Shown: piece by piece, positions 27,001-33,000 of the stretch
Layout of the letters: every line of letters begins with the position of its first letter
Position numbering within the stretch: position 1 is the stretch's first letter
Source: Escherichia coli
Lineage (GTDB): Bacteria; Pseudomonadota; Gammaproteobacteria; Enterobacterales; Enterobacteriaceae
NCBI RefSeq assembly: GCF_003991155.1
Contig: NZ_CP031296.1
Strand: one strand, 5' to 3'
Length of the DNA stretch: 60,038 bases
Made by a program: the position numbers

Positions 27001-30000
27001 CCGGATTTGCATCGGCCCACAAACCACGTTTTTGTTCCTGCGCTTCCCGTTGCAGAGCCGGTAATGACTCATCCACGTTGTAACGTTCATATACCCATGC
27101 AGCGCCAGACTGAACCATAAAGCGGCTGGCATCCGTGCCGTTCGTCGTGAACACATGACCGATAATGCGTCCGTAGCGGTCTTTATGTGAATAAGAGACT
27201 GTCACCTGTTTACCTGCAACCAGAGTTTTAAGCTGACTAGTTGACCAGCGTCCAAAAGGTTGTTTCTTTTCAGGGGCATCGATGTTTATCAATCGGACTC
27301 GGATCGGAACTTCATACACAACAATTTTTGCGGGTAGTGTTTTAATTTCTATGGTGTCGCCATCGAGAACGCGAATAACTTTCCCCTGAAGAATTTTCTG
27401 GTTAAATGTATAAGGTATTCCACCTGCATTTGCAGACTGAAAAGCGGTAAGCAGATAAATAAATATTGTTAATAAGATTTTCATAAAAGATTAACGTTAA
27501 TTTGTCTGTGCAATGGATAGAGCGTTATTCTTATTTTCTTCCTGCCGCTTCATCGAAAAATGATGATTTTCCTACTGCTGCGGCATCATACTGAAATGAA
27601 TATCCAAAATCATCGTCATGCTCAAAACCTGTATTTTCTCCATTTTTTAGTCTGGAAAGAATAATCTCAAGTTGACTGATTATATCTTCCCTTTCACTAT
27701 GACGAGTGCCTTGTAAGAGAATAGTTACTTGTTGCAAAGGATATGCATGTTCAATCCATGCCTGGCTAGGTCCAGAGTGCGTTGTATATAAATTTTTTTG
27801 TGCCGAAATATTATTCAGAAAACAGTTTAAGTCATCATTGGAATAAATTTCTTTAATATTGTTGATGTTGGATGTTAGTTTTCCAAGTTGGAATGGTGGA
27901 GAATTTTTGTCTTCATTGTTGTCTCCTTTATCGTATTCTGGAAACACAATTAACAAAGGTGCACCATTAGTTCTCTTCATAAAACGGGTTACTAGCCGCC
28001 CAATATATTTATTGGACATATGCTGTTCAATGTCCAGGACAGCATATTCCTCCGCTGGGAACATTTTGTTTTTTTCGATGGATTTAATTTTTCTGGTAAG
28101 ATGAATGTTTCTGATAAGCAAACCTACTATCAGGAAGTAAATAAATATCCAGAATAAAAAATCACTCTGTAGTTGTTCTATCATAAGTGAATCCTCTAAT
28201 TTGTTAATGGACAAATCATTACCCGTTCATCAATGTTTGTAGGAAGTTCGCCAGGAGTAGGGACGCGTTCTCCTCGCTGGGCGGCTTGTGCCAGTGTTCG
28301 TAGCAGCAACACGCTGGCATGAAATATGGCCTGTTCTTTTGTGGCTGCGCTTGTTTCCAGGTCGAAATCACTCAGAGTCACAACGACTTGCCCGTTTCTG
28401 TTCTCGACCGTTGCCGGGTAGGGAACAAAATAGGGAGCGATTTTGCTGGTTTGCTTGCGTCGGGCATCGAGTTTACTGACAAGTTGATAAGCCCGAAGGT
28501 GTGTGTATCGTTTCAACATGTTCAGGGAGCGATGGCCTGAAATAGCGGCAACCTCAATGACGTTCAATGTACCAAGTTCGAAAAATCGGCTGATAGCCTC
28601 ATGACGGAGGTCATGAAAATGCAAGTTTTCTATCTTCAGTTCCTGAAGTGCTGTTCGCCAGGCACTTTTGAATCCCGAAGAGGTATAAGAAAAAATATTA
28701 CCGTTAAGCTGTGTCGGCAGCATTTGCAGGTAATTACGGGCTTTCCTGGATAGCGGAACATCGCGTGGAGCACCGTTTTTGGTTGTTGGAAGATGAGCTA
28801 CCCCATGTTGCAGATCGACGTGTTCCCAACGCAATGACAAGATTTCACCTTGTCGCATTGCTGTTTCCAGCGCCAGATGAAAAATGACGTAAAGAGCCTG
28901 ATTTTTTTCTTTGAAATACCGCGAAAGTCGGCGTTCTTCTCCTGAAGTCAGGCGACGATCGCGCCCGCTACTGATTTTGGGTTTTCTGACCAGTTCGACA
29001 GGATTCATGCGGCATGTTCCCCATTCCACACGGGCGATATTGAATAATGATGACAACAGGGCAAGTTCAAGACGGACGGTGTTTCCGGTTATTTGACGCC
29101 CCGTTCGTGGGTTAATTTGCGCCAACCGTTGATCCCGATAATTGGCAATATCAACAGTGGTAATGTCATCCATATAGCGTTCAGCAATAGGGTGACGTTT
29201 AATCACATTTACGCGATAAAACTCCTGTAGATGGCCTTTTTTGTGGATGGATACTGTCTTCAGGTATTTGTCCAGCGCCCGGCTGATTGTCATTTTGCGA
29301 ATTTTGATTTTCTGAAACATATCCCCTCCAGACAAAAAAGGGGGGAAGGTAGAGATTCTTGCTTCGAAATGCAATATCACCGTGCCAATCCGGTACGTGG
29401 AAAAAAATTGGCGCAGGTGATAGCCAAATTGTTACCGCTTCAGCTACTGCGTGGCGTTGGCCTGGAGCAACGGCAACATGTCCATCTGGCAAGAAAGTCA
29501 TTGGTGGAGGCGGTCAATGCAGATCAAATACCGGATTTATATGGCTCACACGTTCCATGCCTTCAGGCAACAATGCATGGACTGCCAGTTGCGACACGAC
29601 CGAAGATCAAAATGGTTCAATTACAGTTTACGCCATTTGCCAGTGACGATACTTATCACTGGCAAACCACGATGTAACTACATTTCCCCGACAGGTCAGT
29701 TCGGTGAGTACCGCCATAAAAGTTGTATTCGTCATAGAAGCCGCATTTCACAATTCGATTGGCATCATAGGTTGCAACTGACCCCGCAAAATAATTCGGC
29801 TTCCACCCGTGCGGATTTTCTGCATTACTGACACTCCAGGTACACTGGCTGGCAGAAAAACCAGATGGCAATGGGATCTGTTGTCCATTTGCTATTTTTC
29901 CTGTCAGAACAGTGCTACCTGATGCCCTTCTCCACGTACCGGATTGGCACTGGCCTCCGTGCCAATCCGGTATCTGGACAACGGCAAAAGTGAACTTCAC

Positions 30001-33000
30001 TACCAGTACGTACAATATCGGGAAAAACACCCGAAATCTGAGCATTGGCGTACATGCGTACTGTTCGTGGACATACCTTAATGGTGCGCCTTTTGGTGGG
30101 TTTCAGCAGGTATACTCCGACCAAAACAAGGTTTGGTATGTGAATAATTATGCGTGGGGAAATTATGAGTCCGGCGGCACAATTACTGTTACATGCCTGA
30201 ATCTTCCTGGTGCTGGGATTTAACCGAAGGGGCAACAATAAGCATCAACGTGTTCCTCATCAACGCCATCACCAATGCCATACATGCGTGTACCTGTCAT
30301 GATAAATCCGGTCGGGCATTGAATGGGTTTGTAGTAGATAGATCCTCCACTTTTCCCGCCAATGAAGTGATTCATTGCTACAGATGATTGATACCACTTA
30401 CAGGCGGAGTAGTTCACTTTATTGCCACCAGACCACCGACCGGATTGGCACGGAGGCCAGTGCCAATCCGGTGTGTGGAGGGCATTAGGTGGAAAGCTCA
30501 AGGTTACTCAACTTTCCAGCACTGGTTACTTGGGGCAATTTGACTTTTGTGCCATTGCCAGAATGGGAAATGCTGAGGATTCTCATTACTGCCAGGTAGT
30601 CGAGAGTCCATCTGGTTCACGAAAATGGTACAAATACGAGCACAAGACAGGTTGTATTGCGTCCTGTGTAACTCTCAATTAAGTTTGGTATCCAAATACT
30701 GAAAATACCCCTGAGCCACAAGAGTAGTTTTGGGCCGGATAAGAGGTGATCTGATAAGTTGCGCCAGCAGGGACAGCAAAAGAGATGAATGCTGTCTTCC
30801 CATAAGATGGGTTATTACTCGCATTTGTGCTAATCAATGCCCCTGCAACGTATCCCTGCAATCTGGATGTGTTAGCACAATCTCCCCCGGCGGAACCACC
30901 ATTCCCTCCAGAGGCGTAAACAAACAGCGTACCACTTCCCGTATTGCGACCAGTAAATGATCCTCGGTGTGATCCAAGATTACTGTAACTACCGTTAGAG
31001 GAACCGGAAGTTCTCCACACACCGGATTGGCACGAAAGTATCGCCCCTGTACTGTCGCGGCCTACAAGCCCGTTAGGGGAGCAGGAAGCGCCAGCCGTTG
31101 CTGTTTTTTCAAGCTGTAAATACTCGCCTGTATAGAGGCGTCCATCAGCGCGTACAGTTCCACCTTTTACCTGGCCGCCAGTATAAATCCCTTTATTATT
31201 CACGCTGCGCAACCAGGACGAATCGGACATATACCAGCCGCCACCATAGGTACTGTTCATCCAGCCTTTGCTGTTTTTTGTGACCAGCCAGCCATTATTC
31301 GAAGTGATATCGCCGTTGGTTGTGGCTGTATTTCCTGAAATTGCGCCAGAGAACGTACCGTTACGTGCGCTGATATCGCCGGAGAGCGCGGCGGCGTTGC
31401 CGTTTAAAGTGCCGACGTTGTTCAGATTGTTGCTGTTCATATCAATCGCCGTATGCATCCTGTTAAGGTCGGGACGATTGGTTATGGAGTAACGATATAA
31501 ACGGTCGCTTTCCTGCAAATCAGCGCCAACAAGTGCCATTGCAATATGCCCGGTCGCGCAGTTCAGCCCGTAATTTGAAGGCGTGTCAGACCAGCCGCCA
31601 CCCGCGCCAATCGCCTGCTTGCTGCTGTTGATGTAGCCGCCAAGCCCTTCAATCATGCTTGCTACCGAGCGCATTCCGGCTTCTGACAGGGACTGACCGC
31701 CATTACTACAGGTCAGGGCTTCCAGACGGGATGTTTTGCTGTTCTTTGCAATACCGGTAATGTAGCTTTGTCCAAAATTGGATTCAGAAAAACCAGATTT
31801 CAGATAGCCTTTCTGAATGAGTGTTGCTGGCGTGATTGTTTTGGGTAAAGAGCCAGCAAGTAGTGTTGATGCATTGTCAGCAACATAATTACGAACAGCG
31901 GTGTTATAGGTATTTGCGTGTTCTGCTGCATTCTGCCAGCGAACATTATTCAGATGGTTTTCAATGTTTTCATAAACTTTAGGGATAACCATCACCATTA
32001 TGCCGATGACAAGCAATACCTCAAGGAGAGATACACCTTTATCTGTCTTTTTCATTGCTCTTAATCCTCAGAATAATATTCCCGGTACGAGTGAGTAAAC
32101 AAACATTCCGCCACAAAGAAATGGGCCAAATGGGATATATTTTTTTTGCTTGTTTAATCCGCCAAGAGTGAAGAAAATAATTCCGCCGATAACGGCAATA
32201 AATACAATTGAACAGGCAATCTCAGGCGTTGGAAACCATACGCCAGTTCCTGCAATAAGTAGCACATCTCCCATGCCGAAACTTTCCGTTCCGTTTTTAT
32301 ATGCAAAGTAAAGTCTTACAAACAGCATAATGAAGAACATCAGTATTGCACAAAACAAACCAGACAATATATTGTTATTCCATGTCTGATATAACAGGCC
32401 GGAGAAGATAAATGTCACGGTATAAAGGCGTGGTAGTAGAAATGAAAGAAGGTCTATACAGGCCATTAATGTAAGGAAAGCATAGAAAATAATCACTATT
32501 ATAGATTGAATCAGTGATAGCTGATTTAATGAAAGATACATAACGGCAAGCGTTGTCAGTATCAGGCAGTAATATTTCTCTGCTCCGGTTTTATAAGATA
32601 CATTAAGTTTATTTAAACGGAATTTAACTTCATTGTAGGCGTAGCATTGACAGACGATATTTGCACAGCAAAGTATCGCCGTATTAAATATGCTGTTTAG
32701 CATAAGTTACCTTACCATGTATTTATTGTAGACATAGCGTGCGTATTTGATTCTTTTCTGTTCGTTACTTTCTTTGAAACCAGCGTTATAACTGCCAAGA
32801 CAACTCCAGTTTATGCCGCATTTCTGAAAATGTGTTGCCAGAATCCACGCGCCAATCTGTATATTGAGACAGGGGTTATCAATAAGCTCTGATTTGTCTT
32901 TTATTACGCCAAGTTTTTTCAGGTTAGGGATGTGTGATGAATTAATTTGCATTAGTCCGTAATCGGTGCTTAATATTTTTCCTTTTTCTTTGTTGTGATT

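Follow-up and report, generated by a model that had tools for sequence, protein, structure and literature searches.

The question raised by this locus is whether the cluster of short repeats lying between pilV and rci forms a DNA switch for alternative PilV ends and, if so, which kind of switch it represents. The stretch of 60,038 bases that was analysed, hereafter the window, represents a complete IncI2 plasmid of Escherichia coli that carries mcr-1.1. It runs collinear with pCA-26, itself a complete IncI2 plasmid, and its close relatives are all typed IncI2, MOBP and MPF_T. The locus is almost certainly an R721-type shufflon of this conjugative plasmid, in which the recombinase Rci inverts segments to switch the ends of PilV. 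The anatomy of the element, its reading frames, the intact rci gene and its identity to studied plasmids can be read directly from the DNA, and nothing in the sequence speaks for another reading.

The sites at which shufflons recombine (sfx) are 19 bp long and are made up of a 7-bp core (GTGCCAA), a right arm of 12 bp that is conserved and a left arm that is not (PMC9045228). A search of the window for GTGCCAATCCGGTNNNTGG at up to 2 mismatches returned 6 matches, all of them perfect and all within 29382-31033, against a chance expectation of 0.02 matches on average; none of 100 dinucleotide-preserving shuffles gave six. A seventh site was not found in the window even at up to 3 substitutions, and the total stays at 6. 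The strands of the sites alternate strictly, as the first-pass annotation had proposed, and each segment is flanked by inverted copies in the manner of a shufflon. The left arms at the two outer sites are not conserved. The variable triplets are ACG/ACG, ATC/CGG and GTG/GTG for the three successive segments. The sites and the spacers between them are as follows.

29382..29400, + strand: sfx 1 (GTGCCAATCCGGTACGTGG), fixed boundary on the rci side and start of ORF B'
29932..29950, - strand: sfx 2, ACG type, start of ORF D'
29951-29958, no strand: spacer 1, 8 bp, TGGCCTCC, between back-to-back sfx sites
29959..29977, + strand: sfx 3, ATC type, start of ORF C
30433..30451, - strand: sfx 4, CGG type, start of ORF C'
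30452-30459, no strand: spacer 2, 8 bp, GGAGGCCA, the spacer 1 octamer in inverted orientation
30460..30478, + strand: sfx 5, GTG type, start of ORF A'
31015..31033, - strand: sfx 6, GTG type, fixed boundary on the pilV side, with CQSGVW encoded at the junction of the constant and variable parts

The interiors between these repeats measure 531, 455 and 536 bp, in agreement with the sizes of about 530, 455 and 536 bp first estimated, and each of the three segments carries two convergent partial reading frames that start in a repeat.

29382..29950, no strand: invertible segment BD, 569 bp including both sfx sites, with the two convergent ORFs B' and D'
29383-29646, + strand: ORF B', 87 aa, segment BD, 76% identity to its R64 counterpart
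29949-29656, - strand: ORF D', 97 aa, segment BD, 84% identity to the single ORF of the R64 D segment
29959..30451, no strand: invertible segment C, 493 bp, whose two sfx sites differ (ATC vs CGG)
29960-30223, + strand: ORF C, 87 aa, segment C
30450-30220, - strand: ORF C', 76 aa, segment C
30460..31033, no strand: invertible segment A, 574 bp, adjoining the constant part of pilV
30461-30682, + strand: ORF A', 73 aa, segment A
31032-30679, - strand: ORF A, 117 aa, segment A, the end of pilV in the assembled arrangement

All six frames are open from the second base of their sfx site (TGC CAA TCC GGT, or CQSG) and begin with CQSGxW. The repeat-encoded PDWH that the first-pass annotation had included in the PilV ends does not belong to them; it corresponds to CCGGATTGGCAC, the neighbouring inverted sfx site read on the other strand, and shows up only because mechanically called ORFs are extended upstream over the 8-bp spacer. 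Names were assigned to the segments and frames from several sources. The BD designation was checked against Table S3 of Sekizuka et al. (PMC5430464), and A was distinguished from A' by the mismatch counts of that table, where the counts for the 23-bp ends match the ORF A and ORF A' rows, together with the AP017614 record, which reads pilV-A'-A-. In relatives of the window, PGAP names the same segment C frames 'shufflon protein C'' and 'shufflon protein C'. The identities to the R64 counterparts are 83% and 93% for the segment C frames and 83% and 90% for those of segment A. The six C-termini and the full PilV had no matches in NCBIfam, a library that contains no PilV or shufflon HMM.

On either side of the segments lie the genes expected for such an element.

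28196..29320, - strand: rci, tyrosine recombinase, 374 aa, intact, directly downstream of pilV and the shufflon
30679..32055, - strand: pilV as assembled (pilVA), 458 aa, a 341-aa constant part plus the 117-aa A end
32068-32703, - strand: prepilin peptidase (Pfam Peptidase_A24; annotation of relatives)
32707-33246, - strand: lytic transglycosylase, start uncertain (Pfam SLT; annotation of relatives)
33255-33812, - strand: major pilin PilS (Pfam PilS; annotation of relatives)

The arrangement reads pilV-A-A'-C'-C-D'-B'-rci. The first reading, in which pilV is fused to the adjoining segment, holds: the gene runs through the sfx site at 31015-31033 into segment A (30460-31033), and the assembled product is the same protein as WP_000750519.1 of relatives. 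Its constant part matches Pfam Shufflon_N (PF04917, E 2.7e-167) and ends at the fixed sfx site, beyond which the alternative C-termini can follow in frame. The thin-pilus genes at 32068..33812 lie upstream of pilV in the same operon direction, which places the shufflon distally in a type IVb thin-pilus operon carried by an I-complex conjugative plasmid. Rci, encoded beside the invertible region, matches Pfam Phage_integrase (PF00589, E 1.8e-24) and falls among Xer-like tyrosine recombinases in an NCBIfam scan; the first-pass annotation had made the integrity of its reading frame a point to check, and the frame is complete.

The nature of this enzyme decides whether the locus might instead be a different invertible switch, for tail fibres or fimbriae, that is driven by a serine invertase of the Hin/Gin/Cin/Min type and merely resembles a shufflon. 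Convergent alternative C-terminal frames are found in other invertible systems, including the G segment of phage Mu, the C segment of phage P1 and the Min system of p15B. However, the adjoining enzyme belongs to the tyrosine recombinases and is identical to R721 Rci, the 19-bp repeats are canonical sfx sites and the target gene carries a Shufflon_N domain. The serine-invertase reading is refuted by the recombinase type, and we regard its probability as negligible.

As a shufflon, the locus can be assigned to a type by comparison with known systems. The IncI2 prototype R721 (NC_002525; segments A, BD and C) agrees with the window in every protein compared: there is 100% identity for Rci (WP_000486716.1) and for the 341 aa of the PilV constant region, and the six C-termini are all identical as well, which answers the comparison with known PilV variants that had been suggested earlier and bears out the claim of a shufflon with six alternative PilV ends. 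R721 also matches the window in its six sfx sequences and in its total shufflon length of 1,652 bp, and its segments differ from those of the window by 0-1 nt (one each in BD and A, none in C). The defining features of this type, namely three two-ORF segments that carry A, A', B', D', C and C' with B' and D' in one segment, are all present. The two plasmids differ in the state and setting of the element. Read from the rci side, the R721 record is A(inverted)-BD-C with pilV fused to C', whereas the window is BD-C-A with pilV fused to A; both spacers are in opposite orientation, and the R721 backbone is 75.6 kb with Tn7 and an integron, compared with a 60-kb mcr-1 plasmid here. The first-pass annotation did not name this architecture as the long-known R721/IncI2 type.

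Two larger shufflon types were considered and rejected. The IncI1 prototype R64 (NC_005014) shares the mechanism, the sfx core and right arm, and the gene order pilS-...-pilV-shufflon-rci, and it has a homologous Rci (76%) and homologous A, A', B', C, C' and D' ends (76-93%). In contrast to the window, R64 contains seven sfx sites and four segments: B and D are separate there, an additional B end is present, and the D segment holds one ORF between sfx sites in direct orientation. The constant part of its PilV is 357 aa rather than 341 aa, its sfx triplets are ACC/ACT/ACG/CGG rather than ACG/ATC/CGG/GTG, and its conjugation system is MPF_I rather than the MPF_T of the window's relatives. The window, with six sfx sites and neither a B-type ORF nor a single-ORF segment, is smaller than the R64 type, as had been recognized. 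The IncI2 plasmid TP114 (four segments, eight PilV variants; PMC9045228) shares the backbone type and the A, A', B', D', C and C' ends, but the TP114 type has an extra segment encoding B and a novel D end, with TCG-type sfx. The TP114-like plasmid pQ503 (L002) was used as a stand-in for TP114 (MF521836); it has the same Rci accession, and five of its six corresponding peptides are identical to those of the window, with C' one residue off. The eight sfx sites including TCG and the B/D segment are present in pQ503 and absent from the window.

A complete shufflon could nevertheless be frozen, for example if Rci were not expressed, so that only PilVA would be made. A single arrangement is visible in the window, natural cases exist (in the relative NZ_CP051327 the same rci is split by an IS903B insertion), and the DNA directly upstream of rci yielded no convincing sigma-70 promoter. 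The scan of 28100-32200 for such promoters returned 5 sites compared with 6.3 in the shuffled expectation, and is hence silent on rci transcription. On the other hand, none of the six sfx sites carries a mismatch, rci follows pilV directly on the same strand and may receive read-through from the pil operon, and work on TP114 indicates that very low shufflase levels suffice (PMC9045228). The strongest comparison is with pMRY16-002_4 (AP017614; PMC5430464), like the window an mcr-1 IncI2 plasmid of about 60 kb. Its rci with the 61-bp upstream region, its three segments and its pilV constant DNA show 0 mismatches to the window, and this plasmid shuffles in clonal culture: among PacBio subreads from one clone, each of the 48 potential arrangements (2^3 x 3!) occurred, with uneven frequencies (PMC5430464). 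It was deposited in its predominant form, pilV-A'-A-C'-C-B'-D'-rci; compared with that record, the window carries segments A and BD, as well as both spacers, in flipped orientation. In TP114, the shufflon is locked when rci is deleted and becomes active again when rci is provided in trans (PMC9045228). We consider a frozen state very improbable, and the identity of the DNA suggests that inversion is active in the window plasmid. A translational brake on Rci was also considered, as a terminator-like hairpin (29343-29323) overlaps the rci ribosome-binding site; this idea was dropped because shuffled sequence folds about as well as the hairpin (z = -0.47) and the region is not conserved in R64.

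It is also conceivable that the shufflon is real but that the order and orientation recorded here represent an assembly consensus or a chimera of a mixed population. Automated PacBio assemblies have contained mis-assembled shufflons, including dropped segments (Sekizuka et al., PMC5430464), and the first GenBank record of TP114 missed a whole segment (PMC9045228). The structure in the window is, however, a legal one, with six alternating sfx sites, three complete segments, 8-bp spacers and the full 1,652-bp total, a length common to the window, R721 and seven other plasmids. pCA-26 has its segments in the identical arrangement, and so does pMN232214, to judge from a single colinear piece of alignment at 99.9%. 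An artefact of this kind is unlikely and would leave the identity of the element unchanged. Read from one sequence, the arrangement may or may not be the dominant form of the source culture; shufflons are a known trap for assemblers, and the arrangement in a single record should not be over-interpreted.

Comparison with 11 complete shufflon loci from other plasmids provides a further view of inversion in this family. Near-identical plasmids carry at least six segment arrangements of the same 1,652-bp shufflon, and across the arrangements compared each ORF keeps its own sfx triplet, as crossover in the core predicts. Together with the shuffling of the identical pMRY16-002_4 locus, these arrangements give strong backing to the first-pass view that the order seen is one snapshot of a population. 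The 8-bp spacers are flipped between plasmids with the same segment arrangement: the window and pCA-26 differ in spacer 2, and plasmids L008 and L009 differ likewise, which indicates convergence on one arrangement by different inversion paths. Flipped spacers are a footprint of multi-segment inversions. The two spacers are probably one and the same octamer (TGGCCTCC), which each multi-segment inversion flips, giving 192 states rather than 48 and a hidden record of inversion history. This feature was not described in the shufflon literature examined; it follows trivially from where the crossover is known to fall and may already have been noticed. Spacer orientation was also evaluated as an invariant for separating legal from chimeric arrangements and was rejected: when segment and spacer states were searched breadth-first, 192 of 192 were reached, leaving no invariant and no power for such a test.

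The R721-type reading implies the following mechanism. Rci would recombine any two sfx sites in inverted orientation, with crossover within the 7-bp core and the 12-bp right arm (TCCGGTNNNTGG) kept with its segment, so that BD, C and A could invert singly or in groups. Whichever half-segment ORF (A, A', B', D', C or C') came to lie beside the fixed sfx site at 31015-31033 would be fused in frame through CQSGxW to the 341-aa constant part of pilV, and PilVA would be the adhesin expressed in the arrangement read here. The six resulting adhesins that tip the type IVb thin pilus are predicted to bind different sugars of the recipient LPS core, and a clonal donor population could therefore contain sub-populations that mate in liquid with different recipients. 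Single fixed PilV variants of TP114 gave recipient-specific transfer in broth (PMC9045228), and conjugation assays have pointed to receptors in the LPS core oligosaccharide for PilVA, A', C, C' and D' (PMC10654706). Homology suggests similar specificities for the PilV ends of the window, with receptor assignments drawn from TP114 and R64 homologues and not from these exact proteins.

A shufflon of this exact type is already described in the literature and is intact here, and the discovery value of the locus is nil. The R721 shufflon was reportedly sequenced in the early 1990s. The type was quantified by long reads in 2017 (PMC5430464), and adhesin receptors were mapped in 2022-2023. The importance of the element lies in its carrier, as the shufflon contributes to the broad recipient range of colistin-resistance plasmids in liquid and in the gut, and the full three-segment set, with its six adhesins, may widen that range compared with one- or two-segment sets.

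A pattern search of the 60,038-base window for the 19-bp recombination site sfx (GTGCCAATCCGGTNNNTGG) gave six matches, all perfect and all located within the shufflon; for the window, dinucleotide-preserving shuffles predict 0.02 matches on average. Extra or degenerate copies were absent from the window at up to three substitutions. The principal features are as follows.

29382, 29932, 29959, 30433, 30460 and 31015; strands +, -, +, -, + and -; sfx sites, by pattern search
28196-29320; directly past the last repeat; Rci, 374 aa, Pfam Phage_integrase family
30679-32055; minus strand; PilV, 458 aa, Pfam Shufflon_N (E 2.7e-167)

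The sites alternate strictly in orientation and pair into three segments (interiors 531, 455 and 536 bp), divided by two 8-bp spacers; the first-pass annotation had described just such an alternating array, with segments of about 530, 455 and 536 bp. Each segment carries two convergent ORFs, of 87 and 97 aa (BD), 87 and 76 aa (C) and 73 and 117 aa (A). The motif PDWH..CQSG that had been ascribed to the ORF starts contains a small mistake, as its PDWH part is the neighbouring inverted sfx on the opposite strand, called solely because the mechanical ORF call extends back over the 8-bp spacer. In segments C and A, the stop codons of the two convergent ORFs overlap in a palindromic TTAA (30220-30223 and 30679-30682); those of segment BD lie 9 nt apart, flanking a short inverted repeat, CCAGTGA...TCACTGG.

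Ahead of pilV on the same strand, Pfam identified a prepilin peptidase, a lytic transglycosylase and a PilS-type major pilin; NCBIfam contains no model for PilV. The recombinase type (Phage_integrase family, Pfam) rules out a serine-invertase switch. On the same strand downstream of rci (25198-28214) are a 227-aa ORF to which Pfam gave no match, a staphylococcal-nuclease-family ORF (26969-27484) and a PcfJ-domain ORF, which are conserved rci neighbours in R721 and other IncI2 plasmids. A hairpin across the rci ribosome-binding site was dropped as not significant and not conserved in R64.

To name the segments, we mapped sfx sites and ORFs in the IncI2 prototype R721 (NC_002525), the IncI1 prototype R64 (NC_005014) and relatives. 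The 97-aa ORF matches the sole ORF of the R64 D segment and its partner matches an ORF on the R64 segment that also bears the B end, and 29382-29950 is therefore BD. One segment has unlike sfx (ATC versus CGG) and is C, in agreement with the report that unlike repeats occur in segment C only (PMC5430464); in relatives, the PGAP names "shufflon protein C" and "shufflon protein C'" sit on these same ORFs. Over the 23-bp segment ends, A differs from A', B', D', C and C' by 2, 3, 2, 3 and 6 mismatches and A' from B', D', C and C' by 5, 4, 5 and 5, counts equal to those given for ORFs A and A' in Table S3 of that study (PMC5430464); they agree only when the 117-aa ORF is taken as A and the 73-aa ORF as A'. 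Under the same naming, the deposited sequence of the mcr-1 IncI2 plasmid pMRY16-002_4 (AP017614) parses as pilV-A'-A-C'-C-B'-D'-rci, the form its authors found predominant (PMC5430464). From these four lines, the window has the order pilV-A-A'-C'-C-D'-B'-rci and the assembled gene is pilVA.

Comparison with the prototypes identifies this element as a textbook case of the R721-type IncI2 shufflon, already known, and caught here in one of 48 arrangements, a count given by the formula 2^n x n! (PMC5430464). R721 has the same Rci and the same 341-aa PilV constant region (100% identity), and its segments BD, C and A differ by 1, 0 and 1 nucleotides. The first-pass annotation had proposed comparing the six C-termini with known PilV variants, and all are identical to those of R721 (6/6). 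R721 segments A, BD and C encode ORFs A, A', B', D', C and C' (PMC5430464), the same set as here. The Rci of R64, in contrast, shares 76% identity, and for every C-terminus R64 offers a single clear counterpart, at 76-93%. R64, with segments A, B, C and D (PMC5430464), also encodes a B end and keeps D as a segment of its own with one ORF; it has seven sfx in total, and the present shufflon is thus smaller, as had been stated. The original observation is confirmed and its interpretation supported.

A megablast of 28196-32055 against the plasmid collection returned 804 records, the best being conjugative plasmids of ~60 kb (IncI2/MOBP/MPF_T) at 99.3-99.9% identity. In this collection rci occurs at >=99% identity in 490 records, and segments BD, C and A, counted separately, in 511, 404 and 311 (A in another 131 at 95-99%); taken singly, all three are common.

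In the model established for R64, R721 and TP114, Rci recombines sfx pairs in inverted but not in direct orientation; crossover takes place in a 7-bp core, and each segment keeps its conserved 12-bp right arm (PMC9045228). Our data fit this model in three ways. Among eleven plasmids, the sfx triplet keeps with its ORF at every locus except that of pPSS-12_2 (NZ_AP027699), an atypical extra-segment IncI2 plasmid in which B' has GTG rather than ACG. The same 1,652-bp shufflon occurs in at least six segment arrangements among near-identical plasmids; other relatives have a two-segment form without C, a TP114-like four-segment form and, in one case, an extra 267-bp single-ORF segment. Finally, spacers 29951-29958 and 30452-30459 are one octamer in opposite orientations (TGGCCTCC and GGAGGCCA), and flipped spacers are what multi-segment inversions should leave. 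The IncI2 plasmid pCA-26 has the segment arrangement of the window but with the second spacer (30452-30459) flipped, and two further relatives share an arrangement while differing in both spacers. Spacer state is a record of inversion history beyond the 48 segment arrangements. The extra segment of pPSS-12_2 (3188-3473) encodes a single 83-aa PilV-type end (CQSGVWKKGGGIGKVSSYQ...) with no match among the R64, R721 and TP114-type ends compared; a directly oriented, degenerate sfx (GGGCCAATCCGGTGTGTGG) forms one of its boundaries, and in layout it resembles the one-ORF D segment of R64.

The closest experimental reference, pMRY16-002_4, has 0 mismatches to the window in rci plus upstream region, in the pilV constant DNA and in each of the three segments. 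When one clone of that plasmid was sequenced with PacBio, the subreads showed all potential arrangements at uneven frequencies (PMC5430464). A frozen shufflon is unlikely here, given that this shuffling plasmid has an identical rci and rci upstream region, although such a state may occur naturally elsewhere: in a turkey Salmonella IncI2-type plasmid (NZ_CP051327, 46632-48822) IS903B divides rci, 100% identical to ours in the matched parts, into two, making it a candidate for a naturally locked shufflon. In TP114, rci deletion locks the shufflon and rci in trans unlocks it, and when PilV is fixed as one variant, transfer in broth becomes specific to the recipient (PMC9045228). Conjugation assays led to inferred LPS core-oligosaccharide receptors for PilVA, A', C, C' and D', five of the six ends (PMC10654706). 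For the present isolate we infer both shufflon activity and the receptors that its own PilV proteins recognise. The order and orientation seen here could be a consensus made by the assembler: shufflon assembly errors are documented (PMC5430464, PMC9045228), and a spacer-state model, in which every state is reachable, cannot separate a consensus from a real arrangement. On the other side, all parts are present in a legal structure, pCA-26 shares the segment arrangement, and one further record likely does, judged from an alignment in a single colinear piece.

From base 1 to 60038 the window aligns collinearly with pCA-26, a complete circular plasmid of 62,214 bp, and therefore appears to be an entire IncI2 plasmid; the two sequences appear to be opened at one shared position near repA. 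Identity is mosaic: most of the length aligns at ~99.6-99.8%, and the regions around 5.5-8.7 kb and 53.5-56.5 kb are divergent or do not align. Midway along a 1,437-aa relaxase-like ORF (13187-17500), which in relatives carries the annotation LPD7 domain protein, the peptide ATEQ(A/E)Q is repeated in tandem. The resistance region comprises the following.

17595-18596; immediately upstream of mcr-1; IS30-family transposase ORF
18792-20417; plus strand; mcr-1.1, protein identical to MCR-1.1 of pCA-26
20465-21241; next after mcr-1.1; PAP2-family ORF

The transposase ORF falls in ~1.06 kb absent from pCA-26 and by position looks like a candidate ISApl1. The complete mcr-1.1 IncI2 plasmid context is of epidemiological rather than mechanistic interest.
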